Part shown: positions 49,436 to 64,000 of the stretch, one piece after another
How the letters are laid out: each line of letters starts with the position of its first letter
How positions within the stretch are numbered: position 1 is the stretch's first letter
DNA from: Bdellovibrionales bacterium
Lineage (GTDB): Bacteria; Pseudomonadota; Alphaproteobacteria; UBA9219
Direction: 5' to 3'
Assembly (NCBI GenBank): GCA_040275305.1
Contig: JBEOJY010000001.1
Coordinates: 78,858 to 142,857, forward strand
Length of the DNA: 64,000 nt
Position numbers and translations under genes: made by a program
The notes under the pieces: model-generated
Database searches by the model: none
Told to the model about the DNA's origin: nothing
What the model saw: only the letters and a program-made list of their open reading frames with translations

Positions 49436-50407
49436 ATGACTCGCAGCCGCCTCGTCATAGCTGCTAAGCTTGCCTTGTCAGGTGGCATTATATATTTGCT
49501 GGGGCAGCGGTTCGAGGCTCGGCAACTTCTCGAATCGATGCATGGCTTCGATCCGTCTTATTTGTTGGCTTCGATCTTTTGCGCCGTTCTGGCCGTTCCC
49601 ATCGTTGGATACCGTTGGGTTCTGCTTGCTAAGGCGCTTTCCGTATCCATTTCGTTTGTCGAGGCCGTTAACGCGACGTTCGCAGGGCTGTTTGTCGGAC
49701 AAATATTACCAGGCGCCATTGGCGCAGATCTTGTGCGCGGCTGGATGGTTTGGAGGGCCAAAGTCAGCAACAAGCGCATGATCGCAAGCCTCGTGCTGGA
49801 CAGGGTCGTTTCGTTGGGCGCGGTCGGGCTTATGATCGCGGGGACGTTGCCGTTTCTTATTGTTCGGCTGCCGCGCGAGCATTTTCTTTGGGTGGTGTGG
49901 AGTCTTCTGGGATTGACCGGGTGTTTGATCGCGGCATATGTCGGCTTGCGTCTTTTCGGGCGCATCAGCAAGAATTTGTCCTTACGCGCCATGATCGACA
50001 AGCTTGATTTGAAGCGATTAAAATTGTCTGTCTCGGACGCTTTGGTTTTGGCGGCTCTCGGCATCGCCGGGCATGTCGCCATGATCGTGTCCGCCTATTT
50101 TCTTAGTAAGGCTATCGGCATGAATTCGGCGCTGTGGATGTGGATGCTGGTCATGCCGGTCGTAATTTTGGCCAGCGCTATCCCGCTTTCCATCAATGGG
50201 TGGGGCGTGCGCGAATTTATGATGATTCAACTTTGGGCATCTTTTGGTTTTCTTGAGTCTGAAGCGTTTCTGACTTCCGTCTGTCTTGGCGCCGTTGCCA
50301 TGGCGTCTAGCCTTCCGGGGGTTTGGTTTTATCTGAAACGTAAATCAGGGCGGTCGCGAGAATCCCTTGAAAAGTATGCACAGGGTTTTTCCAAGAGGTT
50401 GGTGTGA
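49436..50407 (+). CDS. Flippase-like membrane protein (UPF0104 / lysyl-PG-synthase TM-region family)
   Basis: ~8 TM helices, 323 aa. Family commonly partnered with polyprenyl-phosphate glycosyltransferases. Confidence 0.55.
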   Translation: MTRSRLVIAAKLALSGGIIYLLGQRFEARQLLESMHGFDPSYLLASIFCAVLAVPIVGYRWVLLAKALSVSISFVEAVNATFAGLFVGQILPGAIGADLVRGWMVWRAKVSNKRMIASLVLDRVVSLGAVGLMIAGTLPFLIVRLPREHFLWVVWSLLGLTGCLIAAYVGLRLFGRISKNLSLRAMIDKLDLKRLKLSVSDALVLAALGIAGHVAMIVSAYFLSKAIGMNSALWMWMLVMPVVILASAIPLSINGWGVREFMMIQLWASFGFLESEAFLTSVCLGAVAMASSLPGVWFYLKRKSGRSRESLEKYAQGFSKRLV

Positions 50408-52038
50408 TGACTCTTTCGATCAAAAATAAAAACGCAGTTTATCGCGCTATAGATTTCACTCAAATTCTTATTCTTGTTGGGATATTTGTTTATTACTTTG
50501 TCGAGAATTTCGTGTTGTCCGGGAGCTGGGAAATCCTAGCGCTTCGGAGCGTTGACGACGCGGCGATGCAGGGGGCTGTCCATAATATACATAAGGCGAT
50601 GACGGAGGGGCGTTATCCGCTTAACAAGCTGCTTGCAACATTCGATTATGCTTACGGCAACGCATACTGGCTCTTGACCTCCATACTTCTTTTTCCTTTC
50701 TATCTTATCGGCGACGCGCAGGCTCAGATCGTCGCGGGGCGGCAGATTTCCTTGCTGTTTGTCGCTGGCAGCATTTATGTCATGGGGCGCATTGTTGAAA
50801 AGTTGTATCCCGAATCTCGTCGATTGAAATATCCTTTGATGATCGCGATGGCAACCGCTCCGATGGTCGCGGTAATCGCAACGAAGCTTCACGTCAACGC
50901 GCCGTGCATCTTTTGGGGCGTTTTGTCGTTTTACTACCTTGTGCGACGTCCGGACTTTATCAGGAAAGATATGATGTGGTCGGCGGTGTTCGCCGGAGTT
51001 GCTGTGGGCTTCAAGCTTACGGCGGTTTTTATTCTTCCCGTCATAGGTTTGACGTTACTCAGTCAAATCTGGCGGTTCAGTCCTTTGAGGAAGATTACCG
51101 AGATCGCTATTTTTTCCGGCCTGTTTCTTGTGGTCGCCGCAGCTTCCATGTTTCCACCCTTGCTGTTGTTTCCGTTTTACGGCGACAAAATTTCCGAGGC
51201 CTATAAAGCTTTTTTGATGTTTAGGGATCTTGCCGCTATTGGCGGCAACAGCGACTTATTTTTGAAACTTATTAACACGCTTGGTTATTTTCTCTCGCCT
51301 TTGACACTTGCTGTCCTGTCGTTCCTGTTTCTTATGCTGATCCTTGACGATATCAGGAAGCGTAGATTTGTGAGTTCGTTCATTTTCGGCACCATCTTGC
51401 TGACGCTAGGTTATCTTGTTTTGACCGTCCAAAAGGATGCTACGTATGTCGCGAGTTATATGTTGAGCGTTAGCCTGTTCCTGCCGCTTGGGCTTCTGGG
51501 GGTCGCTGCGTTCCGTGCGCCAGAATCGATCAAGCTTACCGTACTTTATCTTATCGTCGTCTCTGGCTTGATTTGCATGACGCCTCATCAGAAAAGCGTG
51601 TTTGATTATTTTAATTTCTTTGCGCTTGCCAAAAGCGAAAAAGCGACTAATCAAATGGCTGCTCTGGAAGAGATAAGGTCCTTGGTTTCGCCGTTGAAGC
51701 TTCCAGTTCGTGTTTTACAGGATTGCGAGTCCGTTTTTCCGGCGACGATGTACACCGATGGCGTTTTTATCGGGTATATTTTCGGGGACCTGAAAGACAA
51801 GACGACATGGGGGGATTTTGACTATATCCTTTTGAGCCGCAAGCATTACATTGGTAAGCCGCCTGCTCCGCTGGTCATCGACAAGAAGACTCCATTGGAG
51901 AAGCTTTCTGGCACCGAACTTGAAGAAGCCATAAGACAGCGTCTGTATGACAAGGGGGATTATTACGGGCGCAAGTATCGTTTGATTTACGATCGTTACG
52001 ATTCGCTTTTGTATCAGCTTGTGAAGCCAGCAAAATAA
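50407..52038 (+). CDS. Polytopic membrane protein, GT-C-like (ArnT/PMT-type) glycosyltransferase candidate
   Basis: ~11 predicted TM helices in the first 400 aa plus a 140-aa soluble C-terminus. Start overlaps the upstream stop (TGATG). Confidence 0.4.
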   Translation: MTLSIKNKNAVYRAIDFTQILILVGIFVYYFVENFVLSGSWEILALRSVDDAAMQGAVHNIHKAMTEGRYPLNKLLATFDYAYGNAYWLLTSILLFPFYLIGDAQAQIVAGRQISLLFVAGSIYVMGRIVEKLYPESRRLKYPLMIAMATAPMVAVIATKLHVNAPCIFWGVLSFYYLVRRPDFIRKDMMWSAVFAGVAVGFKLTAVFILPVIGLTLLSQIWRFSPLRKITEIAIFSGLFLVVAAASMFPPLLLFPFYGDKISEAYKAFLMFRDLAAIGGNSDLFLKLINTLGYFLSPLTLAVLSFLFLMLILDDIRKRRFVSSFIFGTILLTLGYLVLTVQKDATYVASYMLSVSLFLPLGLLGVAAFRAPESIKLTVLYLIVVSGLICMTPHQKSVFDYFNFFALAKSEKATNQMAALEEIRSLVSPLKLPVRVLQDCESVFPATMYTDGVFIGYIFGDLKDKTTWGDFDYILLSRKHYIGKPPAPLVIDKKTPLEKLSGTELEEAIRQRLYDKGDYYGRKYRLIYDRYDSLLYQLVKPAK

Positions 52039-52050
52039 GTAGGATGTTTG

Positions 52051-52584
52051 ATGAATAGCGTTTTAAAGCCCAAGCAATTCATTCTTGATGTCGATGGCGT
52101 TATGACCACTGGCCAATTCCTCTATACGCCTGAGGGCAAGGCCATGAAGGTCTTTGGTCCGGACGATAATGACGCGCTTTCGCTGCTCAAACCGTATATG
52201 GATATCCGCTTCGTGACGGGCGACAAAAAGGGGTTTCCTATCAGCAAGAGACGCATCGTCGACGATATGGGCTTTTCTTTGGAGATCGTCAGCACGATTC
52301 GCCGCATCGACTGGATTCGCCAGCAGTTCGATCCTCAGGACGTTATCTATATGGGCGACGGAATCTTTGACCACTATGTCATGCGGCAGGTGGGGTATGC
52401 TATCGCGCCCGCAAATTCGGATGCACTTGCGAAGCGCCATGCGCATTTTGTCACGCAGAGAAGCGGTGGCGATCGCGCCGTCGCGGAGGCTTGTCTTCAC
52501 ATTCTGGAGAGGTTCTTCGCGCCCTATAATCCAGACATGTTGCCGAGCGAAAACACCAAGCTTTCCGGGGAGTGGACCGTATGA
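52051..52584 (+). CDS. HAD-IIIA phosphatase, KdsC-like
   Basis: ILDVDGVMTTG, ...GDK..., YMGDG..D motifs of the KdsC/YrbI subfamily. SD agga 5 nt upstream. Confidence 0.7.
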   Translation: MNSVLKPKQFILDVDGVMTTGQFLYTPEGKAMKVFGPDDNDALSLLKPYMDIRFVTGDKKGFPISKRRIVDDMGFSLEIVSTIRRIDWIRQQFDPQDVIYMGDGIFDHYVMRQVGYAIAPANSDALAKRHAHFVTQRSGGDRAVAEACLHILERFFAPYNPDMLPSENTKLSGEWTV

Positions 52585-53750
52585 TTCATCAAAGACTGGA
52601 GTCATTTCTCAACAAGCGGCGTTGCACGCTTTTGGGCCTTGGCCCTATGAGCGTCAATTGCGTCGATGCCGCAATCGAGTTGGCGAACGAGCATGAGATT
52701 CCGCTGTTGATGGTCGCCTCGCGGCGACAGATCGATTCTGAGGATTTCGGAGGGGGCTATGTCAACAATTGGACGACTTCGGAATTCGCTCGCTATGTGA
52801 TCGACCATGACAAGAAGGGCAAAATCCTTCTGGAACGCGATCATGGCGGGCCGTGGCAGAATACTAAGGAGATTGATGCGGGGCTTAGCCTGCGTCGCGC
52901 CATGGAGTCTGCCAAGGCGTCATATCGCGCCGATATCGATGCTGGATTTCAGATTATCCATATCGATCCGAGCGTGGATATTCATGGAACGCCGGATGTT
53001 GACGATGTTCTGGAGAGGATCTTCGAGCTTTATGAATATTGTTGGAGCCATGCGCAGAAGCTTCAGCGAGAGATCATTTTTGAGATCGGCACGGAGGAGC
53101 AGAGCGGTAGCACCAACACGCAGGAGGAGTTGGACTACACATTGAGAACGGTCAAACGCTTTTGTTCCAAGAACAATTTCCCACAGCCGACTTTTGTCGT
53201 CGTGCAGTGCGGTACGCGCACGAAAGAGACCCGCAATGTGGGGTCTTTCGACGCTCCGGTGCGCGTCGCCGACGAGTTGCCGCCGGAAATCCAGTTGCCT
53301 AGGATGATCGAGATTTGTAACAAATACTCCATCTTCATGAAGGAGCATAACGCAGACTATCTTTCGGATGCGGCTTTACAGTGGCATCCGCGTCTGGGCA
53401 TTCATGCGGCTAACATTGCGCCGGAATTCGGCGTCGCGGAGACTCGCGCTTTGGTTTCGATTCTGGAGTCCCATGGCCAGAAGAAGTCTGCCGAAGAATT
53501 TCTTAAGGCTTCGTATGATTCCAGAAAATGGGAGAAATGGATGGTCGAGAACACCAAGGCGACTGATCGCGACAGGGCCATTATTTCAGGACACTATGTG
53601 TTCTCCAAGCCGAAGGTCGTCGAGCAATTGGCGGCGGCCAAACAGAATCTCAAGGCGAAAGGCATCGACCTTGATCTTCAGCTTAAAGAGGCCGTCAAGA
53701 AATCCATCTTGCGCTATCTTGTCAATTTCCGTCTCGCGAGGGTCGCATGA
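52572..53750 (+). CDS. GatZ/KbaZ-family (tagatose-bisphosphate aldolase non-catalytic subunit-like) TIM-barrel protein
   Basis: The N-terminal ~110 aa align with E. coli GatZ: LLGLGPMSVNCVDAAIELA vs GICSVCSAHPLVIEAAL; LLMVASRRQIDSEDFGGGYVNNWTTSEFARYV vs [28 protein letters not shown]. Overlaps the kdsC-like 3' end by 13 nt. Confidence 0.55.
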   Translation: MDRMIHQRLESFLNKRRCTLLGLGPMSVNCVDAAIELANEHEIPLLMVASRRQIDSEDFGGGYVNNWTTSEFARYVIDHDKKGKILLERDHGGPWQNTKEIDAGLSLRRAMESAKASYRADIDAGFQIIHIDPSVDIHGTPDVDDVLERIFELYEYCWSHAQKLQREIIFEIGTEEQSGSTNTQEELDYTLRTVKRFCSKNNFPQPTFVVVQCGTRTKETRNVGSFDAPVRVADELPPEIQLPRMIEICNKYSIFMKEHNADYLSDAALQWHPRLGIHAANIAPEFGVAETRALVSILESHGQKKSAEEFLKASYDSRKWEKWMVENTKATDRDRAIISGHYVFSKPKVVEQLAAAKQNLKAKGIDLDLQLKEAVKKSILRYLVNFRLARVA

Positions 53751-54574
53751 ACAAGCGCGTTGCTACGATTATTTTGAATCGCAATCTGCCGGAGGCGACG
53801 GATCGACTGTATGATCATTTGATTAAACACGATGGCGATTTTACGGATGTGTATGTCGTCGAGTCCGGTTCCGATCCCGATCGCTTGTCCAAACATGTCA
53901 CATGGCGCGCGGATTGGCCTGAGGCGGTCGCTCATGGTTTGCGCTTTAACAGGGGGATGAATTACGGGTTGAGCCAGTTGTGGAAGGAAGGCAAGTTCAA
54001 GAACTATGACGCATTCTTTCTTCTGACGAACGATTCGGAACTGCAAGATAGCTCGACGCTCAAGCCGTTGTTGGATATTCTTGACAAGCATCGGCGGGTC
54101 GGGATTCTGTCGCCCTGCGGCAAGCGTTGGGGCGAAAGATTTCTGCTTAAGCATCAGACGACGAAATATTTTTGGTTCATTCACAACAACGCCTTGTTGT
54201 TGCGACGCGAGTTTGTCGAGGCGGTTCTTAACGCGGATCAGCCCGATCATATGGGGTTTTTGTTTGATGGCGCAAACTTTCGGGGCTACGGCGCGGAAAG
54301 CGAAATGATCGCCAAGGCCTATGCCAACGACTGGGCGGCGGCCATCACTTCGGATGTTTACGTCGGGGAGAACGAATCGTATCTTCTCAATCAGGCTGAT
54401 CTGATCAAGACGGAAGGCTATGAAGAGAATTTGAGGCTCTATATCGAGGAAGGCCAGCGCTGGATGCGCAATAAGTACGGATTCAACAGCCGCTGGTCGA
54501 TGCAGCAATATGTGAAGAGCTTCTACGAACGGTTCTTCGACTTTTATCCGGAATACAAAAACTATCAGGTGTGA
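53747..54574 (+). CDS. GT-A-fold glycosyltransferase-like protein
   Basis: VATIILNRNLPE at the N-terminus resembles the GT2 start; TNDSE possible DxD. ATGA overlap with the upstream gene. Confidence 0.4.
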   Translation: MNKRVATIILNRNLPEATDRLYDHLIKHDGDFTDVYVVESGSDPDRLSKHVTWRADWPEAVAHGLRFNRGMNYGLSQLWKEGKFKNYDAFFLLTNDSELQDSSTLKPLLDILDKHRRVGILSPCGKRWGERFLLKHQTTKYFWFIHNNALLLRREFVEAVLNADQPDHMGFLFDGANFRGYGAESEMIAKAYANDWAAAITSDVYVGENESYLLNQADLIKTEGYEENLRLYIEEGQRWMRNKYGFNSRWSMQQYVKSFYERFFDFYPEYKNYQV

Positions 54575-54582
54575 GGATCGTC

Positions 54583-54927
54583 ATGGACGTTATCGAAAAG
54601 CCTTGGGGCAAGGAAGAAGTGATCGAGATCAATGATCGCTATATGATGAAGAAGCTTACGATGTGGAAAGGCCATCGTTGCAGCATTCAGTATCATAACG
54701 TCAAATGCGAGACGATCTATGTGTTGTCGGGGCAGTTGCGCATCTATAGCGGCCCTTCGCTTGAAAAGCTTGACTCCAAGGTTTATGTGCCCGGCGAGAC
54801 GATCACGATCAGGCCGGGGACCGTTCATCGCATGGAAGCGGTCGAGGATAGCGTCTATCTAGAAGCCAGCACCCCGGAAATGACAGATGTGGTGCGGCTT
54901 CAGGACGATTATCAAAGGGCTTCGTAG
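54583..54927 (+). CDS. Cupin-domain protein (mannose-6-phosphate-isomerase type II C-terminal-like)
   Basis: EKPWGKEE ... H.CSIQYH ... ETIYVLSG. SD gagga upstream. Confidence 0.6.
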   Translation: MDVIEKPWGKEEVIEINDRYMMKKLTMWKGHRCSIQYHNVKCETIYVLSGQLRIYSGPSLEKLDSKVYVPGETITIRPGTVHRMEAVEDSVYLEASTPEMTDVVRLQDDYQRAS

Positions 54928-56504
54928 TGGGGTACAGGGTTTGCATTCCGACCGCAGGGACGGGGTCAAGGCTCGGCGGGTTGACGCGGTATGTCAATAA
55001 GTCGCTGGTCGCTCTTGCCAACCGTCCGACCTTGTCGCATGTGATCGAGCAATTTCCACAAGATGCAGAATTCGTCATTCCGCTGGGGCACAAGGCTCAT
55101 CTGGTACGCGAATATTTGCAGTTGGCCTATCCGCAGCGCAAATTTTTCTTCGCCAGCGTTTCGCCGTTCGAAGGGCCGGGGTCGGGGCTTGGGCTTAGCC
55201 TGCTCACCTGCAAGGAATTTCTCCAGCAACCCTTCATCTTCATTTCCTGTGATACTCTGGTGAAAGAACCGATCCCCGCGCCTGACCAAAACTGGATGGG
55301 CTATGCGGAGTTGGATCAGATTGCGTCGTACAGGACGCTTTGCGTTCGCGATGGGAAGGTCGAGAGGATTTGCGAGAAGGGCGAGGGGAGTCCGGAGACG
55401 CACAAGCCCTATATCGGGCTTGCAGGCATTCACGATTACAAGGCTTTCTGGGAGGCTATGGAGGCGGGCGGCGACAAGACGATTGCTATGGGTGAGTCGC
55501 ACGGAATGCGCGACCTTGTGGGCCTTGACATTCGCGCGCATGGCTTCACGTGGTTCGACACGGGCAATCCGCAGGCTTTGGCGCGGACTCAGGAAGCCTA
55601 TCGGGTGGCGGATGCTCCTAATATTCTTGAGAAGGCGAACGAGGCGATTTGGTTCGTGGACGGCAAGGTCATCAAGTTTTCGGACGACGAAAAGTTTATT
55701 CGGAACAGGGTCGAGCGCGTTGGCGAGCTTACGGGATTCGTGCCGGAAGTTACGGGTTCGACCGCTCATATGTACAGCTATGCCAAGGTGAAGGGCAGGG
55801 TGCTGTCCGAGGCGGTGACGCTGCCGGTATTTGACAAACTGTTGGCATTCAGCAAGGGATTTTGGCAACCGCATGCGTTGGACGCCGCCGGGGCCAAGGC
55901 TTTCCATGACGGCTGCATGAAGTTTTATCGGGACAAGACTTTGGAGCGCGTGCAGCTTTTCTATAAGAATTTCAAGCGGCAGGACGGCACGGAATCCATC
56001 AATGGGTTCGCTATGCCGACGCTTGAGGAATTGTTCAAGTCGCTGGATTGGGAGTGGCTTGCGCAGGGTATGTCAGGACGGTTCCATGGCGATTTTCATT
56101 TCGAGAATATTTTGTGGGATGCTGATACAAAACGGTTTGTTTTTCTTGATTGGCGACAAGATTTTGGCGGCGATCTTAAGACGGGCGATGTTTATTACGA
56201 TCTGGCTAAGCTTTGGCATGGCCTTATCATTTGCCATGAGTTGATTGCCCAGAATCAATTCTTGGTCGAATGGGGCGCTAGGGAAATCCGTTACGATTTT
56301 CATCGTAAACAGATGCTGGTCGCGTGCGAAGAGGCGTATAGGCGATGGCTTGATGCTGAAGGATATGACCGCAAGAAAGTTTGGATTATGACGGCGCTGG
56401 TCTACCTTAATATTGCGGCTTTGCACCATTATCCCTATTCGTTGTTGTTGTATGCCTTGGGCAAGGCGATGCTGTTCAGAGGATTGCAAGATGCAGTTGA
56501 TTGA
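54927..56504 (+). CDS. Fused nucleotidyltransferase (N-term) plus APH/choline-kinase-like kinase (C-term); LicCA-like or MurU/AmgK-like
   Basis: N-terminus CIPTAGTGSRLG (sugar/alcohol-phosphate NTase G-loop). C-terminus HGDFHFENILWD...FLDW (Brenner HGDxxxxN motif and D of APH/ChoK fold). GTG start overlaps the cupin stop. Confidence 0.6.
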   Translation: MGYRVCIPTAGTGSRLGGLTRYVNKSLVALANRPTLSHVIEQFPQDAEFVIPLGHKAHLVREYLQLAYPQRKFFFASVSPFEGPGSGLGLSLLTCKEFLQQPFIFISCDTLVKEPIPAPDQNWMGYAELDQIASYRTLCVRDGKVERICEKGEGSPETHKPYIGLAGIHDYKAFWEAMEAGGDKTIAMGESHGMRDLVGLDIRAHGFTWFDTGNPQALARTQEAYRVADAPNILEKANEAIWFVDGKVIKFSDDEKFIRNRVERVGELTGFVPEVTGSTAHMYSYAKVKGRVLSEAVTLPVFDKLLAFSKGFWQPHALDAAGAKAFHDGCMKFYRDKTLERVQLFYKNFKRQDGTESINGFAMPTLEELFKSLDWEWLAQGMSGRFHGDFHFENILWDADTKRFVFLDWRQDFGGDLKTGDVYYDLAKLWHGLIICHELIAQNQFLVEWGAREIRYDFHRKQMLVACEEAYRRWLDAEGYDRKKVWIMTALVYLNIAALHHYPYSLLLYALGKAMLFRGLQDAVD

Positions 56505-57627: not shown

Positions 57628-57630
57628 TCC

Positions 57631-58521
57631 ATGGCTGCCGCGCATAGTTCTGGCCTTAAAGTCGGCCTTATCATCCCGGTTTTCAATGTCGAAAAAACCA
57701 TCGCTAAGGTTTTGGCGGGGATTCCGCAAAAGTTTTTTGAGGATATTTCTGAAATCCTTGTCGTCGACAACCATAGCTCCGATAACACCGTGCCTGTGAT
57801 CATGGGGTTTATGAACGAGCACCCGGATTTCGCTTCGCATGTTACATTCATTCAACATGCCGAGAATTACGGCTATGGCGGTAGCATTAAGGCTGGTTTT
57901 GAGTATTTCATCAACCGAGGCATGACCCATGCGATGATTTTCCATGGGGATCATCAGGTTGATCCCGCGTGGCAGATTGGCCTTCTTTTGAGCATCATCA
58001 AGGATAAGCCGCAGACGGATCTTGTGATGTCGAGCCGTTTTTTGTCCGAAAGCAAGATCGAGAACTACAGCCTTCTACGCACCGTCGGCAACTATTTCTT
58101 CAATGCCGTGACGACGCTTTGCTCCGGTTGCAAGATGTCGGATGCAGGGACGGCGATTATCGTCGCGCGTTGCGACGCGTTGAGCCGGGTGCCGTTTCGC
58201 AATCTTTCCAACACGTGGCAGTTCCATCCGCAGCTTAATATTCTTATCCACAAACTGCCGAATGTGCAGGTGGTGGAGACGACCTTAAACTGGTCGGATT
58301 CCGAGGCTGGTTCGTCGGTGCCCCTGATTCGCTATGGCTTGATCTTGTTGAGAATGCTTGTGCGGTATTGGTACAAGACGAATGTTCTGAGACAGAAGCC
58401 GGAGCAGGCTTTCCCGGTCGATTCGGTTCGGGCTGATCGCCGCTATACCGTGTTGATGCAGTCAGGAAAGGACGCTCCTGTCGCGTGCGGCGAGGCTGTG
58501 GGATTGTCCGCAGCGCGGTGA
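57631..58521 (+). CDS. GT2 polyprenyl-phosphate glycosyltransferase (DPM1/GtrB/ArnC-like)
   Basis: GLIIPVFNVEKTI, VVDNHSSDNT (DxD-like). C-terminal amphipathic/TM region. Confidence 0.75.
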   Translation: MAAAHSSGLKVGLIIPVFNVEKTIAKVLAGIPQKFFEDISEILVVDNHSSDNTVPVIMGFMNEHPDFASHVTFIQHAENYGYGGSIKAGFEYFINRGMTHAMIFHGDHQVDPAWQIGLLLSIIKDKPQTDLVMSSRFLSESKIENYSLLRTVGNYFFNAVTTLCSGCKMSDAGTAIIVARCDALSRVPFRNLSNTWQFHPQLNILIHKLPNVQVVETTLNWSDSEAGSSVPLIRYGLILLRMLVRYWYKTNVLRQKPEQAFPVDSVRADRRYTVLMQSGKDAPVACGEAVGLSAAR

Positions 58522-58525
58522 ATTA

Positions 58526-59413
58526 TCAGCCGGCTTTTTCTTCGTTCAGCAGGCGCAGGATGTATTGTCCGTAGCCGCTTTTGGCCATGGGTTGGGCCAG
58601 ACGTTCGAGCTGTTCCGCGCTTATGAAGCCTCGGCGGAACGCTACTTCCTCAGGACAGGCGATTTTCAGGCCTTGCCGCTTTTCAATGGTTCTCACGAAT
58701 AAGCCCGCGTCCATCAGACTGTCATGCGTCCCGGTGTCTAGCCATGCGTAGCCGCGCCCCATGATTTCGACGTTGAGCTGGCCTCGTCGCATGTAGTGGC
58801 GGTTTACGTCGGTGATTTCCAGTTCGCCACGCGCTGAGGGCTTGAGGTTCTTTGCGATATCGACGACTTGGTTGTCATAAAAATATAGACCAGTCACGGC
58901 GTAGTTGCTTTGCGGATTAGCTGGCTTTTCTTCCAAAGAGATGGCGTGGCCATCCTTGTCGAAGGAGACGACACCATAGCGCTCCGGGTCCTGCACACGG
59001 TAGGCGAAGACGGTTGCGCCGCTTTTGCGCGCGTTAGCATGCTCGGTGCGCATCGGCAGGTCGTTGCCGTAGAAGATATTGTCGCCCAACACAAGGGCGC
59101 TTGGCGCGTCGCCAAGGAAGTCTTGCGCGATCAGGAAGGCTTGCGCGAGGCCGTCGGGGCTAGGCTGCACAGCGTACTGAAAGTTCATGCCCCATGGGTT
59201 TCCATCGCCCAACAATTGCTCGAAGCGCGGCGTGTCCTGCGGCGTCGAGATAATCAGGATGTCGCGCAGACCCGCCAGCATCAGGACGCTGAGAGGATAA
59301 TAAATTAATGGCTTATCGAAGACCGGCAGCAACTGCTTGGAGACCGCCATGGTCAGGGGATAGAGCCTCGTGCCGGAGCCTCCGGCGAGGACGATGCCTT
59401 TGCGTGCAAGCAT
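58526..59413 (-). CDS. rfbA: Glucose-1-phosphate thymidylyltransferase
   Basis: [16 protein letters not shown], typical RmlA. Confidence 0.92.
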
Positions 59414-59526
59414 AATTTTTACCAATTGCCTGTTTCTGGCCGCTTTACTGTGTTGGGACGTTGCTGTGTCGCCCGCATTTCTGATAGAGTGTGGCCTATC
59501 TCTTTCATGAAAGACGTGCCAGACAA

Positions 59527-60084
59527 ATGCTTGCGGTTCAAGAATTATCCATTCCCGGCGTCAAGTTGGTCCGGCCTAGGGTTTTCGATGACCCTCGCGG
59601 CACGATGACCGAGGTCGCGCACGATGCGCGGTTTCGCGAGTTGGGATTCCCGGATTTTGTGCAGGAAAATCAATCTTTTTCGAGGCTTCGCGGCACGATT
59701 AGGGGTATGCATTTCCAGAAACCGCCACAGGCGCAAGCCAAGCTGGTGAGGGTTTTACGAGGCCAGATTTTCGATGTCGCGGTTGATGTGCGGCCACAAT
59801 CGGCGAGTTTTGGGCGGCATGCGGTGGCGATGCTATCGGAAGACGAGCTGGCGTGGCTTTATGTTCCCGAAGGCTTCGCGCATGGGTTTTGCACGCTGAC
59901 GAAGGATGTTCAGGTTCTGTACAAGGTTTCTTCCTACTATGCGCCGGGCAGCGAGTGCGGCATGCGTTGGAATGATCCGGCGCTGGGGATTGATTGGCCG
60001 ATTTCCCCGTCAGAGGCGGTTTTATCGGATAAGGACATGCAATTGCCATTGTTCAAGGATCTTCCGGCGGTCATTTGGGGTTAA
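59527..60084 (+). CDS. rfbC: dTDP-4-dehydrorhamnose 3,5-epimerase
   Basis: DDPRG...F.E...[14 protein letters not shown]. RmlC cupin. Confidence 0.9.
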
Positions 60085-60118
60085 TTGTTACGCAGTTGAT
60101 TTCATAGGGTGTATTGCG

Positions 60119-61222
60119 ATGGTTGAGACTCATCATAGCAACAGAGTGCTGGTGACGGGATGCGCGGGATTTATCGGCGCGAATTTTGTTCATCACTTTT
60201 TGGGGCGCACGCGTGGCGGTGGCGCGGTGGTGGGGCTGGATAAGCTGACCTACGCTGGGTGTCTCAAGAATTTGGAGAGCCTTGAGGGCGATGCGCGGTT
60301 TGCCTTCGCGCGCGGCGATATCGGCGACGTTGCGCTTGTGAGGAGCTTGCTTGAGAAGCATAAGCCAGCGGCGATCATCAATTTCGCCGCCGAGTCGCAT
60401 GTTGATCGCTCGATCCATGCGCCGGAAGCGTTCATCGAAACGAATGTGGCGGGGACGTTCCGGCTGCTTGAGGCAGTGAAGGCGTATTGGGTTGGGTTGG
60501 AGGGCGAAGAGAAAGCGCAGTTTCGTTTTCTGCATATTTCGACCGACGAGGTCTATGGTTCGCTGGGGCCGAACGACCCCGCTTTTACCGAAGAGAATCC
60601 CGCGCGGCCCAACAGCCCTTATGCGGCGTCAAAGGCGAGCTCAGATCATCTTGCGCGGGCGTATCACCACACTTATGGGTTGCCTACTTTGACGACGAAT
60701 TGCTCGAACAATTATGGGCCGTACCAGTTCCCTGAAAAGCTAATTCCGCTCATGATTCACCATGCGCTTGCAGGCAAGAAATTGCCGGTTTATGGCGACG
60801 GGCAGAATGTACGCGACTGGCTTTTCGTTGAAGATCATTGCGTGGCGATTATGCGTGTGCTGGAAGCGGGGCGCGTGGGAGAGGTCTATAATGTTGGTGG
60901 GCGCAACGAGGTCAAGAATCTCGATGTCGTGCATACGCTTTGCGATATTCTGGACCGTTTAAGGCCTCGCGCGGAGGGTGGTTCGTACCGTGAGCAAATT
61001 ACCTTTGTCATGGATCGTCCGGGGCATGACAGGCGCTATGCGATTAATGCCGACAAGATTGCGGCGGAGCTTGGCTGGAAACCTGCGGAGACTTTCACAA
61101 CAGGGTTCGAGAAGTCGGTGCGCTGGTATTTGGAGCATGAAGACTGGGTTGCGCATGTCACATCTGGCGCATATCGCCAGTGGATGGAGACGAATTACGA
61201 AGGACGTGTAGCGCGGGCGTGA
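60119..61222 (+). CDS. rfbB: dTDP-glucose 4,6-dehydratase
   Basis: VLVTGCAGFIG, YAASK, extended-SDR RmlB motifs. Confidence 0.93.
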   Translation: MVETHHSNRVLVTGCAGFIGANFVHHFLGRTRGGGAVVGLDKLTYAGCLKNLESLEGDARFAFARGDIGDVALVRSLLEKHKPAAIINFAAESHVDRSIHAPEAFIETNVAGTFRLLEAVKAYWVGLEGEEKAQFRFLHISTDEVYGSLGPNDPAFTEENPARPNSPYAASKASSDHLARAYHHTYGLPTLTTNCSNNYGPYQFPEKLIPLMIHHALAGKKLPVYGDGQNVRDWLFVEDHCVAIMRVLEAGRVGEVYNVGGRNEVKNLDVVHTLCDILDRLRPRAEGGSYREQITFVMDRPGHDRRYAINADKIAAELGWKPAETFTTGFEKSVRWYLEHEDWVAHVTSGAYRQWMETNYEGRVARA

Positions 61223-61349: not shown

Positions 61350-62072
61350 CTATGCTGGCGGTCTTTCGATTTCGGTGACGGTTCCGTGCTCAAGGCGGAA
61401 GAAGCGGTTGCAATAATCGCGCACGAGTTTGTTGTCGTGCGAGGCGAAGACGAAGATTCCAACCGAGCGGATCAATTCTTCCATGCGTTGTTTGGCCTTG
61501 ACCTGAAACTCGGCGTCTCCGGTGCCGAACATTTCATCCACAAGTAGGATATCGGGCTTGGTCGAGGTCGCGACGGCGAACATCAGGCGCGTGGCCATAC
61601 CGCTTGAATAGGTGCGGACGGGCAGTTCGAGAAATTCCCCCAGCTGTGTGAATTCCTCGATTTCTTTCGCGTTACGTTTGATTTCCGCATTCGACAAGCC
61701 CAGAAGCTTTGACATGCGGATGATGTTCTCGTAGCCGGATAGCTCCATATCCATTCCGGTTCCAAGCTCTAGTACGGTCGCTACCCTTCCTGTGCGTTCT
61801 ACCCGGCCTTCCATGGGGGCGTAGACTCCGGCCATGGTGCGCAGCATTGTGCTTTTGCCCGCGCCATTGTGTCCTATCAGGCCAACAGTGTCGCCTTCGC
61901 GCAGCGTGAAGCTGACATTCTTCAGCGCGGTGACGAGGCGGATGTTTCCGGCGTCTTCTTCGATGCGGCCGCCTGTGCTGATGCGCACGAGGTGGTTGCG
62001 CAGGGACATGCTGCGGCTGTTGTAGATCGGGTAACGGATGGTTACGTTGTCGAAGGCGAGATGCGCGCTCAT
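61350..62072 (-). CDS. ABC transporter ATPase for polysaccharide export (Wzt/KpsT/TagH-like)
   Basis: GHNGAGKST, YSSGMATRL, LLVDE. Confidence 0.85.
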   Translation of the reverse strand: MSAHLAFDNVTIRYPIYNSRSMSLRNHLVRISTGGRIEEDAGNIRLVTALKNVSFTLREGDTVGLIGHNGAGKSTMLRTMAGVYAPMEGRVERTGRVATVLELGTGMDMELSGYENIIRMSKLLGLSNAEIKRNAKEIEEFTQLGEFLELPVRTYSSGMATRLMFAVATSTKPDILLVDEMFGTGDAEFQVKAKQRMEELIRSVGIFVFASHDNKLVRDYCNRFFRLEHGTVTEIERPPA

Positions 62073-62089
62073 GTTCGGTTCCGCCTATC

Positions 62090-62872
62090 CTATACCCAGA
62101 ATGCAATGCGCTTGCATTTGGCGTTGAACATCGCAAGCGCCAAAGCTCCGCCGATTAGCAGCATGCCGCCATTGACGGCGTAGAGAAACCACGGAGTCGG
62201 TTCGCCGAGAAGCGGCGACCTGATGATTTCGATCATGTTGGCTAGCGGATTGAGCCATATATATTTTCCGGAAAAAGGCAGCGCGTTCGGGCGGTACAAC
62301 ACGGGGCTTAGGAACATCAGGAGCGGCAAGATCATGGCGACCAGATATTCGAAGTCGCGGAATCTTGCGCCCATCATGCCGAAGATCAGAGAAATCCAGA
62401 ATAGATTGCCTACGACCAACAAAAAGCCGGGAATTACCATCAGCGTGTTCAAGTTGATTGGCGAACCAAGAATCAGGGCCACAATAAAGAATAGAGGAAC
62501 ATTGTGCGCGATGTTGATTGTGTGGCGCAAAGCTAGCTGGGCGACATGCAGAGAGAGCGGCAGGTCGAGATTTTTGATGATGTTCGCCTGTCGCGTGAAG
62601 ACAGAGGTTGATTCGGCGATGCAGGAAGCCATGAACTGCCAGAGAATCAGGCCGGCCGTCAGCGAGGGTATGTAGGTCGCTTTGTCTTGTTTGAACAGTT
62701 CGCTCCAAATGAAGCCCAAGCCGACGACGCCGAAGGCGGTTCCTATCGTGATCCATAGCGGGCCTAGCACGCTGCGTTTATAGCGCGCACGAATGTCGCT
62801 CCAAGCCATGTACAGGATCAGGCTTGGGTTCTTGAAGGTTTTTATGATGTCAGACAGACCGGGAGCACTCAT
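62090..62872 (-). CDS. ABC-2 type permease (Wzm/KpsM-like)
   Basis: 6 TM helices; ABC-2 signature region. Start MSAPGLSDIIKTF. Confidence 0.8.
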   Translation of the reverse strand: MSAPGLSDIIKTFKNPSLILYMAWSDIRARYKRSVLGPLWITIGTAFGVVGLGFIWSELFKQDKATYIPSLTAGLILWQFMASCIAESTSVFTRQANIIKNLDLPLSLHVAQLALRHTINIAHNVPLFFIVALILGSPINLNTLMVIPGFLLVVGNLFWISLIFGMMGARFRDFEYLVAMILPLLMFLSPVLYRPNALPFSGKYIWLNPLANMIEIIRSPLLGEPTPWFLYAVNGGMLLIGGALALAMFNAKCKRIAFWV

Positions 62873-62964
62873 TAGCGCTGGGTTCCTTGGAAAACGGGTA
62901 GTCTCCATTACCCGAAAATGACGCGAGAGGCAATTCGTTCGCCTTATGTTCCGTTTGGGGTGTT

Positions 62965-63843
62965 TTATTTATGACGCAGGCGCCAGCCCACGCATTTAAG
63001 AGCGGCGCGGAGCCAGATGGCGGGCAGGAGGAAAGTGAGAAGCGGGATGTCGCGCGGGCTTGAGAAATTGTTGAGAAAATAGCGGGTGAAGCCTTTCGCT
63101 TTACAGATTTCGAGGAATGTCGATGTGGCTTCGCTGGTGCCGCCAACATGGGTCATCGCGATATCTGGCGCGAAGTAAATTTCTCCTCCTGCGCGGCGGA
63201 AACGCAAGCAGAGGTCGAGGTCTTCAACATGCAAAAAATAGCCTTCGTCGTAGCCGCCGATGGCCCAGTAGTCTTTTGCGCACAGAAACATGAAGGCGCC
63301 GCTGATCGCGGGGATCGGGGCGATAGATGCAGGAATTGGCTCTTCGTGCAGGTTGAGGCGCAAGCGGGGGAACAGGCGGTGCATGCGCAGGGCTTCGATG
63401 CTGGCCGAGAGGGGGGTTAGTAGCGCGCGGCGGCTTCCGCGCTGGTCGCGTCCCTGTTCGTCCAGAAGCCTTGCGCCGATCATGGCGGGCTGTTTGAGGT
63501 CGCTTTCCCGCATATGGGTCAGCAGGCGGTCAATGGTGTTCGGTTTCAGCAGTCCGTCGGGGTTCAACAACAAAAGATATTTTCCTTTGGCCGCCTTCGC
63601 GCCGAGATTGCAGGCGGTTGCGAAGCCGACGTTGCCATGGCTGGAGAGCCAGACCATGCGCGGCTCGGTTTTCGCGCGCGCCGCAAGCTTTAATTCCACA
63701 TCGGGAGGATTGCCATTGTTGACGAGCACGAGTTCTACCGACGCGGTCGAACCCAGCACAGCGGCTATCGCCCTTTCTAGTACCTCCCCGGTGTGGTAGG
63801 TGACCATGACGACAGAAGTTAAGGGCGCCTCTGGCGGCATCAT
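62965..63843 (-). CDS. Glycosyltransferase family 2
   Basis: VVMVTYHTGE, NPDGLL, VEDLDLC (DxD). Confidence 0.8.
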   Translation of the reverse strand: MMPPEAPLTSVVMVTYHTGEVLERAIAAVLGSTASVELVLVNNGNPPDVELKLAARAKTEPRMVWLSSHGNVGFATACNLGAKAAKGKYLLLLNPDGLLKPNTIDRLLTHMRESDLKQPAMIGARLLDEQGRDQRGSRRALLTPLSASIEALRMHRLFPRLRLNLHEEPIPASIAPIPAISGAFMFLCAKDYWAIGGYDEGYFLHVEDLDLCLRFRRAGGEIYFAPDIAMTHVGGTSEATSTFLEICKAKGFTRYFLNNFSSPRDIPLLTFLLPAIWLRAALKCVGWRLRHK

Positions 63844-64000
63844 TTGGGTTCGCCGTCCGTTTTATATTTCTTCTTCGTGGTCGCTTCCTTCAGTTCCGCG
63901 AGTTTCGCGAAGGGACCTTCGACGACGGTGTTTTCGGCGCTCGGATCGGCGGATATGGCCCGCACGTATGGTATGTTCGGCTTGCGTGGGTAGGGGTCGA
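63839..64000 (-). CDS. Hypothetical protein, C-terminal fragment; stop overlaps the ATG of the GT2 gene
   Basis: Reverse frame ...DPYPRKPNIPYVRAISADPSAENTVVEGPFAKLAELKEATTKKKYKTDGEPK*. AAATGATG overlap. Confidence 0.35.

Follow-up and report, generated by a model that had tools for sequence, protein, structure and literature searches.

A recurrent six-gene module that probably makes an undescribed methylated, activated sugar, in a surface-glycan locus adjoining tRNA-Val

Organization of the locus

The glycan locus described here occupies the 3' part of the 64,000-nt stretch of DNA that was analysed (hereafter, the window), and its 5' boundary is the gene for tRNA-Val(CAC) (Table 1). The tRNA gene is followed by a terminator-like hairpin (49307-49326) and then by nine tightly packed ORFs on the plus strand, the cassette (49436-58521). 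At the first junction the genes overlap by 4 nt, at the second they are 9 nt apart, and then come overlaps of 13, 4, 4, 1 and 14 nt, the last one between the nucleotidyltransferase/kinase and methyltransferase genes, and a 3-nt gap; the 13-nt overlap shrinks to 4 nt if the GatZ-like gene starts at the alternative ATG at 52581, which is possible. The overlaps of 1-14 nt mentioned in the original prediction, which was made from the sequence alone, are accordingly found at six of the eight junctions. It appears fairly likely that the nine genes form one operon that comprises two functional modules.

The rmlA gene is convergent with the cassette, with 4 nt between the two stop codons, so that the co-directional block of the original prediction holds for the first nine genes, whereas rmlA, the wzt- and wzm-like genes and the last GT2 gene lie on the minus strand. 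The start of rmlB was set at an internal ATG of the ORF that begins at 59906, based on the ORF translation. The Wzt-like ATPase lacks the C-terminal carbohydrate-binding extension, and the locus extends past the end of the window, after the last GT2 gene. Pfam domains support the identification of a glycan locus that includes rml and Wzm/Wzt genes, and Pfam and NCBIfam profile searches verify all predicted domains, except that the GT-C and GT-A assignments are based on predicted folds only.

Table 1. Features of the glycan locus (window coordinates)
Feature	Length	Coordinates	Strand	Evidence
tRNA-Val(CAC)		49210..49284	+	ARAGORN; Rfam tRNA, 65 bits
UPF0104 / LPG_synthase_TM flippase-like membrane protein	323 aa	49436..50407	+	PF03706 E = 1e-35; TIGR00374 50.9 bits, above cut-off 43.2
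GT-C-fold glycosyltransferase	544 aa	50404..52038	+	predicted fold
KdsC-like HAD phosphatase	178 aa	52048..52584	+	TIGR01670 64.7 bits, below cut-off 106.95; PF08282
Distant GatZ/KbaZ-family TIM-barrel protein	392 aa	52572..53750	+	PF08013 38 bits vs cut-off 26.7
GT-A-fold protein, soluble, family without name	275 aa	53747..54574	+	predicted fold
Small PMI-type cupin	118 aa	54571..54927	+	PF01050 39 bits vs cut-off 23.6
N-terminal nucleotidyltransferase fused to C-terminal APH-fold kinase	525 aa	54927..56504	+	PF12804 (NTP_transf_3) + PF01636 (APH)
SAM methyltransferase, TylC3/MtmC-like architecture	378 aa	56491..57627	+	PF13489 (Methyltransf_23) E = 3e-13; weak PF08484 (Methyltransf_14)
Small GT2, no TM segment	296 aa	57631..58521	+	PF00535
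rmlA, glucose-1-phosphate thymidylyltransferase		58526..59425	-	PF00483 E = 2.5e-77
rmlC, dTDP-4-dehydrorhamnose 3,5-epimerase		59491..60084	+	PF00908 E = 1e-62
rmlB, dTDP-glucose 4,6-dehydratase		60119..61222	+	PF16363 E = 2.5e-91
wzt-like ABC ATPase	240 aa	61350..62072	-	PF00005 E = 1e-22
wzm-like ABC-2 permease	272 aa	62090..62908	-	PF01061 E = 2e-16; 6 hydrophobic segments
Last GT2, rhamnosyltransferase-like, backbone pathway		62965..63843	-	PF00535; TIGR01556 E = 4e-11, below cut-off

The six soluble enzymes

The KdsC-like HAD protein, whose DVDGV and GDGxxD motifs do not vary among 49 homologues, is proposed to remove the distal phosphate from a sugar bisphosphate or sugar phosphate. The PF08013 match of the GatZ-like protein is largely confined to the N-terminal half, and the equivalog cut-offs are missed by a wide margin. 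A profile comparison with the GatZ structure 2fiq (E = 2e-4) aligns D90-H91 with D87-H88 of GatZ, and E175 and H259, within the conserved IGTE and H-x-TDY motifs, are the counterparts of E171 and H257. In the fructose-6-phosphate to tagatose-6-phosphate 4-epimerase, the GatZ-type residues have been proposed to serve as the base and to bind Zn (PMC11907403). The protein from the window is proposed to be a Zn-dependent retro-aldol/aldol C4 epimerase (or aldolase) that acts on a ketose phosphate.

The GT-A-like protein has no family in a Pfam search; its predicted structure, which is confident only in part, adopts a GT-A fold, and the protein could modify or glycosylate an intermediate of the pathway, or else be the transferase that first takes up the finished product. 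The part of GMP/PMI enzymes that the cupin matches is their C-terminal PMI domain, and cupin residues Q40, H42, E47 and H86 are invariant among 56 homologues; a ketose-phosphate to aldose-phosphate isomerase is proposed.

The fusion protein has more than 1,769 homologues (658 representatives after 50% clustering, E <= 1e-30); full-length identity is 65-72% for the best 120 of them. The best solved relatives of its nucleotidyltransferase half are HddC (E = 6e-5), RfbF and RmlA, and GDP-mannose pyrophosphorylases also score above LicC (E = 0.04). A profile search of the PDB with the kinase half yields no match, and this half has no recognisable characterised relative; whether it uses a free sugar or a sugar phosphate is a guess. 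The protein is proposed to combine an anomeric kinase with a sugar-1-phosphate nucleotidyltransferase and so to produce an NDP-sugar. For the methyltransferase, a weak match to D-mycarose 3-C-methyltransferase (4rv9, E = 4e-4) spans the full length, and the proposed target is an NDP-sugar or a keto intermediate. C-methyltransferases of the TylC3 type normally require a 4-keto sugar, and the lack of a dehydratase within the cassette counts against the route proposed below.

In NCBIfam, none of the six proteins reaches a curated cut-off; solved-structure searches with the cassette proteins return remote matches only, and a literature search found no published description of the six-gene module. 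Together with the two cassette proteins that have no Pfam family, these results bear out the original statement that the cassette maps to no described nucleotide-sugar pathway.

Conservation and mobility of the module

The gene array HAD, GatZ-like, GT-A-like, cupin, nucleotidyltransferase/kinase, methyltransferase is collinear, with both order and spacing kept, in a set of 65 species-level genome loci. The nucleotidyltransferase/kinase is present in 61 of these, the cupin in 58, the GatZ-like and HAD proteins in 53 each, the GT-A-like protein in 52, and the methyltransferase in 48, whereas every other gene family is found in at most 14. Hardly altered, the six-gene core is distributed over numerous bacterial phyla and occurs, for example, in SAR11 and Prochlorococcus; protein clusters number about 1,750. 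Among the 45 loci with sufficient flanks, gene contents are nested: the full set in 33, no methyltransferase in four, neither methyltransferase nor GT-A-like protein in three, and only HAD, cupin and nucleotidyltransferase/kinase (with a GT2) in one, so that the methyltransferase is the first component lost from reduced cassettes. This pattern fits a core isomerase, kinase, phosphatase and nucleotidyltransferase route that was progressively elaborated. In L075 the cassette lacks the HAD gene, which counts against the route proposed below. A YeaD-type hexose-6-phosphate mutarotase is encoded 3' of the cassette in three loci (L007, L011 and L016), and an Aldose_epim gene lies near the cassette in L075; these accessory genes fit an aldose-phosphate substrate for the anomeric kinase.

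The module proteins are 55-80% identical between phyla, and therefore the module has clearly moved horizontally; judging from these comparisons, transfer of the six soluble genes as a module has been widespread. Such movement, the position directly next to tRNA-Val and the low GC content of the cassette are all compatible with the original suggestion that the block is a recently integrated genomic island, which would explain its AT-richness. The GC difference itself is confirmed (0.514, about 5 points below the 0.565 upstream and 0.560 downstream; per gene, Mann-Whitney p = 9e-5). However, the gap in GC3 is small and not significant (0.628 vs 0.653, p = 0.06), and therefore the deficit lies mostly in codon positions 1 and 2, where it reflects protein composition. 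Furthermore, cassette GC tracks that of the host flanks in 41 other genomes (r = 0.96), no integrase, transposase or recombinase is encoded between 38 and 64 kb, the 3' end of the tRNA gene has no second copy (att repeat) within the window, and a search of 72,556 plasmids found no homologue. Comparison of the tRNA-Val locus with related genomes, suggested originally as a way to demonstrate insertion, instead finds the site occupied: a relative at 85% identity (L071-L073) carries the same nine genes and rmlA/C/B from the same tRNA 3' end. A recent tRNA-Val island is, given all this, quite unlikely. Elsewhere in the window, two orphan ORFs (6136-6888 and 16291-16668) deviate in GC more strongly than the cassette does.

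A predicted route to an activated sugar

Folds and families, conserved catalytic motifs, collinear conservation and co-inheritance patterns are the observations from which the following scheme is built; the reaction order, substrate, nucleotide, methylation site and acceptor are what we infer. The product of the six soluble enzymes is probably an activated and methylated sugar not described before. The first module (52048-57627), with five or six soluble enzymes, would need no phosphomutase to convert a central ketose phosphate to a nucleotide-activated rare sugar. The GatZ-like protein would epimerise the ketose phosphate at C4 via Zn-dependent retro-aldol/aldol chemistry (e.g., fructose-6-phosphate to tagatose-6-phosphate, or the equivalent reaction on sedoheptulose-7-phosphate), the cupin would convert the resulting ketose phosphate to an aldose phosphate, the APH-fold half of the fusion would phosphorylate the anomeric carbon, the HAD phosphatase would take off the distal phosphate, the N-terminal half of the fusion would yield the NDP-sugar, and the TylC3-like enzyme would methylate it, with the GT-A-fold protein acting somewhere along the route. 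The HAD protein could also act before the kinase, in a salvage-like order of phosphatase, anomeric kinase and nucleotidyltransferase. The logic resembles that of the nucleotide-heptose pathway (GmhA, HldE, GmhB), but the folds are unrelated.

Alternatively, the GatZ-like protein could be a genuine class II aldolase joining DHAP and an aldehyde into a ketose phosphate, from which the HAD protein would free the ketose and the cupin would produce a free aldose for a fusion resembling Fkp or AmgK-MurU. GatZ/KbaZ proteins share homology with class II aldolases, and the protein from the window retains the metal and base residues; nucleotidyltransferase-kinase fusions such as Fkp use free sugars, and cupin isomerases for unphosphorylated sugars exist, e.g., D-lyxose isomerase. 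The cupin in question, however, specifically matches the phosphosugar isomerase (PMI) family, and the accessory mutarotase is of the hexose-6-phosphate type (YeaD, 2hta/2ciq), not GalM. This route, the downstream logic of which is identical to that of the epimerase scheme, is rather unlikely.

The original prediction left open a choice between a methylated sugar and a phospho-alcohol decoration. In the latter case, the fusion would be LicC/LicA-like, phosphorylating a small alcohol and forming a CDP-alcohol, with the other enzymes supplying or methylating the alcohol and a phosphodiester being formed on the glycan. The kinase half indeed has the APH/choline-kinase fold, its homologues are labelled 'choline kinase' by several sources, the nucleotidyltransferase half also matches the MobA/LicC-like PF12804, and the cassette includes a SAM methyltransferase. 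Nevertheless, the profile ranking given above places sugar nucleotidyltransferases ahead of LicC, the obligate partners are sugar-phosphate enzymes (the PMI-type cupin and the GatZ-like protein, with the hexose-6-phosphate mutarotase in some loci), neither the cassette nor its recurrent neighbours encode a LicD-type or CDP-alcohol phosphotransferase, and the GT2 and GT-C pair moves glycosyl groups rather than phospho-alcohols. The sugar is accordingly favoured, and the phospho-alcohol is very unlikely.

Membrane proteins and the site of glycosylation

The assignment of a flippase-like protein, a GT-C and a GT2 in the original prediction is upheld. The flippase-like protein has about seven hydrophobic segments by hydropathy and is proposed to flip a polyprenyl-phosphate-linked sugar. 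The UPF0104 family is a predicted flippase family, with an archaeal fusion to the Dol-P-sugar synthase AglD (PMC5898192), and GpgF is a further precedent (PMC12713373). The GT-C protein has no Pfam family and no detectable sequence relatives in Pfam; it has a periplasmic alpha/beta domain at its C terminus (from about residue 430) and is proposed to transfer the sugar from polyprenyl phosphate to an acceptor glycan in the periplasm. The best NCBIfam matches of the small GT2 are all polyprenyl-phosphate glycosyltransferases (PgfS, PpgS, AglJ, ArnC), all below cut-offs, and among named solved relatives ArnC ranks first (E ~3e-3). It is proposed to be a polyprenyl-phosphate sugar synthase that transfers the sugar from the NDP-sugar to the lipid carrier; the weakness of this likeness and the lack of a TM helix count against such a role.

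Attaching the sugar to a surface polysaccharide is probably the task of these three proteins, and it would occur outside the cytoplasm. They would form a second module, similar to the three-component Gtr/Arn systems, in which the GT2 would load undecaprenyl phosphate, the lipid-linked sugar would be flipped and the GT-C would act in the periplasm. Three-component periplasmic glycosylation of O-antigens made via ABC transporters is established, and the flippase family varies between systems (PMC11127046). The likeliest acceptor would be a rhamnose-containing polysaccharide made and exported by the products of the adjacent rml, GT2 and Wzm-Wzt genes. The complete reading, from ketose phosphate through a mutase-free NDP-sugar to Gtr/Arn-type periplasmic addition, is one we hold with moderate confidence.

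The acceptor could instead be lipid A/core or another glycoconjugate. The link of UPF0104 proteins to modified phospholipids (MprF, GpgF) points to a variant in which a lipid, or lipid A/core, is the target of the membrane proteins, with the GT-C acting on lipid A like ArnT or the UPF0104 protein flipping a glycolipid. This is unlikely because the cassettes with a GT-C lie in O-antigen-type loci that contain rml, FdtA/DegT, GT61, RgpF and Wzm/Wzt genes, and because most cassettes lack the GT-C and are found next to ordinary cytoplasmic glycosyltransferases and Wzx/MurJ-like flippases, which speaks for a sugar that is part of a polysaccharide.

Returning to polysaccharide glycosylation, the GT-C gene adjoins the six-gene module, with the GT2 gene at the opposite end, in all six GT-C loci (the window, its relative L071, S. 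mobilis, a Burkholderiales MAG, L074 and L075); the flippase-like gene is present in four of these and absent from two, the absences counting against the three-component reading. Counting the window and L071 as one leaves five independent versions; in three of them, namely the window, S. mobilis and L075, the available sequence includes ABC-transporter genes. The GT-C and GT2 bracket the module in rare versions only, and, as far as gene content indicates, the membrane components are a rare add-on to it. A gene similar to this GT2 (GT2a-like) adjoins the minimal cassettes of Gastranaerophilales.

Organization of the locus

The tRNA-Val(CAC) gene, on which ARAGORN and Rfam agree, is followed by a terminator-like hairpin and then by nine plus-strand ORFs that are almost unspaced, the successive junctions being a 4-nt overlap, a 9-nt gap, a 13-nt overlap (4 nt if the alternative ATG at 52581 is used), overlaps of 4, 4, 1 and 14 nt, and a 3-nt gap. 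Seven of the nine domain calls made in the original prediction are recovered with Pfam and NCBIfam models, namely the LPG_synthase_TM/flippase-like protein, the KdsC-like HAD, the GatZ/KbaZ-like protein, the PMI-type cupin, the fusion of a nucleotidyltransferase (NTase) with an APH kinase, the SAM methyltransferase (MT) and the GT2; the other two were resolved through structure prediction. The genes 3' of the block are rmlA, rmlC, rmlB, wzt (PF00005, ATPase), wzm (PF01061, ABC-2 permease) and another GT2 gene (PF00535), so that Wzm and Wzt are encoded together with backbone glycosyltransferases, as in ABC-transporter-dependent O-polysaccharide loci. The identification of a glycan locus is thus upheld, with a correction of strand: co-directionality, originally ascribed to the whole block, applies to the first nine genes, whereas rmlA, wzt, wzm and the last GT2 gene are on the minus strand.

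Coordinates of the features discussed (window positions unless another sequence is named)
Feature	Coordinates	Strand	Remarks
ORF, GC outlier	6136-6888	-	250 aa; GC 0.475; GC3 0.47
ORF, GC outlier	16291-16668	-	125 aa; GC 0.429; GC3 0.38
NAD-specific glutamate dehydrogenase	20879-25870	+	1,663 aa
NTP_transferase-family gene	38821-39921	+	366 aa
tRNA-Arg(ACG)	40074-40150		
tRNA-Val(CAC)	49210-49284	+	
Terminator-like hairpin	49307-49326		
Nine-gene block	49436-58521	+	
UPF0104 flippase-like gene	49436-50407	+	
GT-C gene	50404-52038	+	
Six-gene module	52048-57627	+	HAD to MT
GT2 gene closing the block	57631-58521	+	
Stop codons of GT2 (+) and rmlA (-)	58521-58526		
wzm, wzt, GT2	61350-63843	-	
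Radical SAM gene, L002	3704-5230		B12-binding
Second protein after GT-C, L075	11606-13201		531 aa; no Pfam match
276-aa family, L017	12717-13547		
276-aa family, L022	12737-16000		1,087-aa protein
NTase/kinase homologue, MH319741.1	16013-17557		full-length; 35% identity

The Rfam scan of the window finds two tRNAs and nothing else, and a promoter/terminator scan yields counts no higher than those in shuffled controls and does not inform the operon boundaries. The stop codons of the GT2 gene that closes the block and of rmlA are 4 nt apart, so there is no space for a terminator; in L071, a locus of the relative with 85% identity, this junction is 228 nt long. Elsewhere in the window, a separate NTP_transferase-family gene, unrelated to the cassette, is located just upstream of tRNA-Arg(ACG), and a large glutamate dehydrogenase contains all ACT and helical-motif domains. 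The GC skew is positive in each 1-kb bin from 1 to 64000 and the cumulative skew climbs monotonically; therefore, the window includes neither a replication origin nor a terminus.

A widespread six-gene module

Surface-glycan diversity governs the susceptibility of bacteria to phages and grazers and makes up the main content of hypervariable islands in abundant aquatic bacteria. The locus type described here is ordinary; its interest stems from the breadth and conservation of the module of six soluble proteins encoded between the GT-C and GT2 genes, and from the presence of this module in the most abundant marine bacteria. The NTase/kinase fusion has over 1,769 homologues (658 representatives with E <= 1e-30 at 50% clustering). 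The best 120 of these, which come from very different organisms, are full-length and 65-72% identical, apart from one at 85% and the source protein itself.

A scan of one genome per species identifies 65 loci, the hosts of which are Alpha- (including SAR11), Beta-, Gamma- and Deltaproteobacteria, Prochlorococcus, Synechococcus, Chlorobium ferrooxidans, Planctomycetes, Bacteroidota, Oscillospiraceae, Gastranaerophilales, Acidimicrobiia, Dadabacteria, Peregrinibacteria and a Woesearchaeota MAG; a protein look-up adds a Pacearchaeota-labelled contig, the archaeal label of which reflects binning only. As judged by tblastn and ORF clustering, the order and spacing HAD, GatZ-like, GT-A-like, cupin, NTase/kinase, MT are kept almost everywhere, and the module proteins are 55-80% identical across lineages. 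The HAD family is represented in 53 of the 65 loci, GatZ-like in 53, GT-A-like in 52, the cupin in 58, NTase/kinase in 61 and MT in 48, and any other gene family in at most 14. Among the 45 loci with enough flanking DNA, the gene contents are nested: 33 possess the full set, four lack MT, three lack both MT and the GT-A-like gene, and one (Gastranaerophilales) retains the minimal set of HAD, cupin and NTase/kinase beside a GT2 gene. The GT-A-like gene is never found without the GatZ-like gene in these 45 loci. Cultured carriers are Sulfuriflexus mobilis, which has the nine-gene version, as well as Chlorobium ferrooxidans DSM 13031, Massilia sp. Root418 and Solidesulfovibrio aerotolerans DSM 16695.

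The genes located 3' of the cassette differ between loci and encode GT-B-like proteins, proteins without a family match, WbsX, acetyltransferases and MurJ/Wzx-like flippases; the recurrent downstream neighbours outside the window are a GT-B-like 400-aa protein, a 276-aa protein, a SnoaL-like protein and WbsX. Given this variability, the module resembles a unit for donor synthesis that can be combined with various assembly lines. The searchable literature yielded no account of the cassette, only work on GatZ epimerases, UPF0104 and three-component systems; with no curated NCBIfam match either, the original characterization of an unusual precursor cassette stands.

The 276-aa family, which has no Pfam or NCBIfam match, is encoded directly 3' of MT in 7 loci (including L017 and L022) and is a candidate for a dedicated transferase of the cassette product. 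In L022, this sequence forms the N-terminus of a larger protein with two methyltransferase domains and a GT2 domain, a family of two loci. In L002, the contig binned as Pacearchaeota, an otherwise standard cassette contains a B12-binding radical SAM gene between the GT-A-like and cupin genes, and a second such gene is found in the flank; this insertion suggests extra tailoring, conceivably by methylation.

Predicted functions of the soluble enzymes

None of the cassette proteins reaches a curated NCBIfam cut-off, those of the heptose-pathway models included; because of this, ordinary synthesis of Kdo, heptose or GDP-mannose from end to end was rejected. The GatZ-like protein matches PF08013 with 38.0 bits (gathering threshold 26.7), the match covering residues 30-190 only, and scores 16-32 bits against the GatZ, KbaZ and AgaZ equivalog models, the cut-offs of which are 569-707. 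Its residues D90-H91 align to D87-H88 of GatZ in the profile alignment, and the motifs EIGTEE (E175) and H-N-x-DY (H259) correspond to GatZ E171 and H257, the equivalence of H259 coming from a weak local alignment; all these residues are invariant in 25 homologues. In GatZ/KbaZ, the matching residues have been proposed as base and Zn ligands of a 4-epimerase that converts fructose-6-P to tagatose-6-P by retro-aldol/aldol chemistry (PMC11907403). The cupin matches PF01050, type II phosphomannose isomerase (39.2 against a threshold of 23.6), and has an invariant metal site (Q40, H42, E47, H86), so that it is a putative isomerase. The HAD protein contains the catalytic motifs DVDGV and GDGxxD but misses the cut-offs of the KdsC models (64.7 against 106.95 for TIGR01670 and 57.8 against 208 for PRK09484); it is therefore classified as a KdsC-like HAD rather than as KdsC.

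For the NTase half of the fusion, the best match among solved relatives is HddC, the GDP-heptose nucleotidyltransferase (E = 6e-5), followed by RfbF and RmlA. The kinase half adopts the APH fold according to Pfam, in which it resembles AmgK, NahK and LicA, and has no significant similarity to any solved member. The original prediction included a phospho-alcohol decoration among the possible products, and a nucleotidyltransferase joined to a LicA-like kinase does recall phosphocholine activation by LicC/LicA; LicC, however, ranks ninth among the matches of the NTase half (E = 0.04), no choline-kinase model is matched and no LicD is found among the neighbours, and a phospho-alcohol product is unlikely.

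MT aligns over its full length, weakly (E = 4e-4), to MtmC (4rv9), and its C-terminal Methyltransf_14-like domain scores below the Pfam cut-off. The cassette contains no dehydratase that could supply a 4-keto substrate, and MT may be an O-methyltransferase. The GT-A-like protein is soluble and among the best-conserved members of the module; its family, for which Pfam has no model, amounts to about 1,750 clusters at 90% identity. The AF2 model of this protein is partly confident (pLDDT 59.5) and was used for the fold class only. Since the combination of a GT-A protein with a HAD phosphatase resembles MpgS/MpgP, compatible-solute synthesis was considered and rejected, because the cassette always occurs in polysaccharide loci and carries an NTase. 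Finally, a gene for a YeaD-type hexose-6-phosphate mutarotase is located 3' of the cassette in three loci. The metagenome contig L075 has an Aldose_epim gene near the cassette, together with SIS_2 (GmhA-like), RgpF and wzm/wzt genes.

A putative route to a nucleotide sugar

Taken together, the evidence on the GatZ-like protein, the cupin, the HAD, the NTase and the mutarotase suggests a route from a ketose phosphate to an NDP-aldose and, with MT, a methylated product. In such a pathway, the ketose-P would be converted to its 4-epimer and then to an aldose-P, an aldose-1,n-bisphosphate, an aldose-1-P and the NDP-aldose, with methylation last; a phosphomutase would be bypassed. Which of the kinase and the phosphatase would act first, how many carbons the sugar has, which nucleotide it carries and where it is methylated are our inferences. 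Tentatively, and with slightly less than even confidence, we read the core of the locus as an undescribed, mutase-free pathway from a ketose-P to a 4-epimerised, methylated rare hexose or heptose, in which a GT-A-fold family plays a non-canonical role, which serves the surface glycans of many phyla (SAR11, Prochlorococcus, Synechococcus and Chlorobium among the carriers), and the product of which is added in the periplasm by a new GT-C family in the window.

The cassette is a single portable module common to SAR11, Prochlorococcus, Synechococcus, green sulfur bacteria, many Proteobacteria, Melainabacteria and contigs binned as Pacearchaeota and Woesearchaeota. Solving the pathway would add a nucleotide sugar and probably a new monosaccharide, and would give functions to two families that lack a Pfam model, the GT-A-like proteins and the rare GT-C. 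To our knowledge, the isomerase/kinase/phosphatase/nucleotidyltransferase logic has so far been found for heptoses only, and the cassette would provide a second, convergent example. With six small soluble proteins and cultured carriers, this well-defined pathway lends itself to direct testing.

Membrane proteins and proposed periplasmic glycosylation

The GT-C protein is predicted to consist of a multi-spanning membrane core with the GT-C fold and has an acidic motif in the first extracytoplasmic loop; R48, S49, D51 and D52, located right after helix 1 (residues 2-38), are invariant in its 24 homologues, which are all that a set of 5.8 billion proteins contains. None of the sequences in the GT-C alignment (A5) has a match to the Pfam GT-C families (for example PMT_2 and Glyco_transf_22), apart from one stray TMEM260-like match at E = 0.007. 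The GT-C gene adjoins the cassette, and a small GT2 gene closes the opposite end, in all six contexts examined (the window, its 85% relative, S. mobilis, a Burkholderiales MAG and the metagenome contigs L074 and L075). The best NCBIfam matches of the GT2 protein, all below cut-offs, are the polyprenyl-phosphate glycosyltransferases PgfS, PpgS, AglJ and ArnC (E about 3e-3 for ArnC), and it contains no TM helix. From its fold and its co-inheritance with this GT2, the GT-C protein is predicted to take its sugar from a polyprenyl-phosphate-linked donor on the extracytoplasmic side of the membrane. In L075, a second protein is encoded directly after GT-C, at the usual position of HAD, and may be a GT-C paralogue.

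Four of the six contexts, among them the window, contain the UPF0104 flippase-like gene, which L074 and L075 lack. UPF0104 proteins are predicted lipid flippases (PMC5898192; PMC12713373), and in archaea they are fused to the Dol-P-sugar synthase AglD (PMC5898192). By analogy with the three-component periplasmic glycosylation documented for ABC-transporter-pathway O-antigens, in which the flippase family differs among systems (PMC11127046), GT2, UPF0104 and GT-C have the expected anatomy of such a system. When the window and its close relative are counted as one, there are five independent versions, and three of them, those of the window, S. mobilis and L075, have ABC-transporter genes in the sequence examined. 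The acceptor in the window is likely to be the rhamnose-containing polymer implied by rmlACB, GT2 and Wzm/Wzt.

Comparison with known systems

The proposed pathway shares its four-step logic (ketose-P isomerase, anomeric kinase, HAD phosphatase acting on the distal phosphate, nucleotidyltransferase) with the heptose pathway (GmhA; HldE or HddA; GmhB; HldE or HddC). As in HldE, the kinase and NTase are fused, and HddC is the solved structure closest to the NTase half. The cassette phosphatase is presumably small and capless, of the general HAD type to which GmhB belongs, although it is KdsC-like, unlike that of the heptose pathway. Furthermore, the isomerase is a PMI-type cupin rather than a SIS domain protein like GmhA, the kinase has the APH fold whereas the heptose kinases are PfkB or GHMP proteins, and the cassette has three more conserved enzymes, the GatZ-like, GT-A-fold and TylC3-like methyltransferase proteins. 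Because its isomerase and kinase belong to other families and none of the curated cut-offs is reached, the cassette appears, judging from sequence comparison, to work like the nucleotide-heptose pathway without being a member of it.

The individual enzymes also depart from their closest relatives. The GatZ-like protein shares the Asp-His pair and the Glu/His Zn-ligand motifs with the GatZ/KbaZ 4-epimerases (PMC11907403), but the similarity is mainly in the first 200 residues and far below equivalog level, and the context is biosynthetic, in contrast to the galactitol or GalNAc catabolic context of GatZ/KbaZ. Fkp, AmgK-MurU and LicC-LicA fusions likewise combine an NTase and a kinase in one polypeptide; the cassette fusion, however, is accompanied by a putative isomerase, epimerase and phosphatase, as in a de novo pathway, whereas those fusions belong to salvage routes. 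The TylC3/MtmC C-methyltransferases need a 4-keto substrate, whereas the cassette has no 4,6-dehydratase.

As in GtrA/GtrB/Gtr*, ArnC/ArnEF/ArnT, Klebsiella gmlABC and Citrobacter ORF12/14/15 (PMC11127046), a candidate polyprenyl-phosphate sugar synthase of the GT2 family, a candidate flippase and a GT-C are encoded together in an O-antigen locus, and the association with the ABC-transporter pathway is shared with Klebsiella O2 and Citrobacter O1/O2 (PMC11127046). The flippase candidate belongs to UPF0104/COG0392 instead of GtrA/SMR or MATE and is dispensable in some loci, and, unlike in the Gtr/Arn systems, the window GT-C falls outside the Pfam GT-C families and the GT2 has no TM helices. 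The donor differs as well: a dedicated six-gene synthesis cassette is physically merged with the glycosylation genes here, whereas Gtr/Arn systems draw on a common UDP-sugar or PRPP. We classify the cassette with its membrane part as a variant of nucleotide-sugar synthesis plus three-component glycosylation in which two protein families are unnamed.

Composition and origin of the nine-gene block

The position next to tRNA-Val and the AT-richer core led to the proposal of a tRNA-integrated island. The GC content of the block is indeed 0.05 below that of the flanks (0.514 compared with 0.565 upstream and 0.560 downstream), and the per-gene difference is significant (p = 9e-5), but the difference in GC3 is not (0.628 vs 0.653, p = 0.06); therefore, the deficit resides in codon positions 1 and 2 and reflects protein composition. 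In 41 other genomes, the GC content of the soluble core tracks that of the flanks from 0.25 to 0.70 (r = 0.96, mean difference -0.016). The most deviant ORFs of the window, both stronger GC outliers than the cassette, are two minus-strand ORFs far upstream that have no match in a Pfam search.

No integrase, recombinase or other mobility gene is encoded between 38 and 64 kb, where all ORFs are assigned other functions, and the genes upstream of tRNA-Val are housekeeping ones, including leuD-like, lexA, spoT/relA and rpoZ. A second copy of the tRNA-Val 3' end is not found in the window (with up to 3 mismatches), the locus extending beyond base 64000. A plasmid- or phage-borne origin was also rejected: none of the 72,556 plasmids searched gives a match, and the single match in the phage collection, MH319741.1, is a record named 'Marine virus AG-345-E15' that carries no annotation, derives from one amplified cell and may represent cellular DNA deposited as viral.

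Three metagenome contigs of the relative (L071, L072 and L073; NTase/kinase 85% identical) begin within the same tRNA-Val 3' end and contain the same nine genes followed by rmlA (minus strand), rmlC and rmlB, so that the comparison with related genomes, from which evidence of insertion had been expected, instead finds the same site occupied. Given this shared site and the lack of mobility genes and of a tRNA repeat in the window, the nine-gene block, horizontal in origin, is probably resident and ameliorated rather than a recent insertion. The three assemblies are independent, yet each breaks within the tRNA-Val gene at about 170 nt 5' of the cassette, which suggests that the tRNA gene is repeated or that strains differ upstream.
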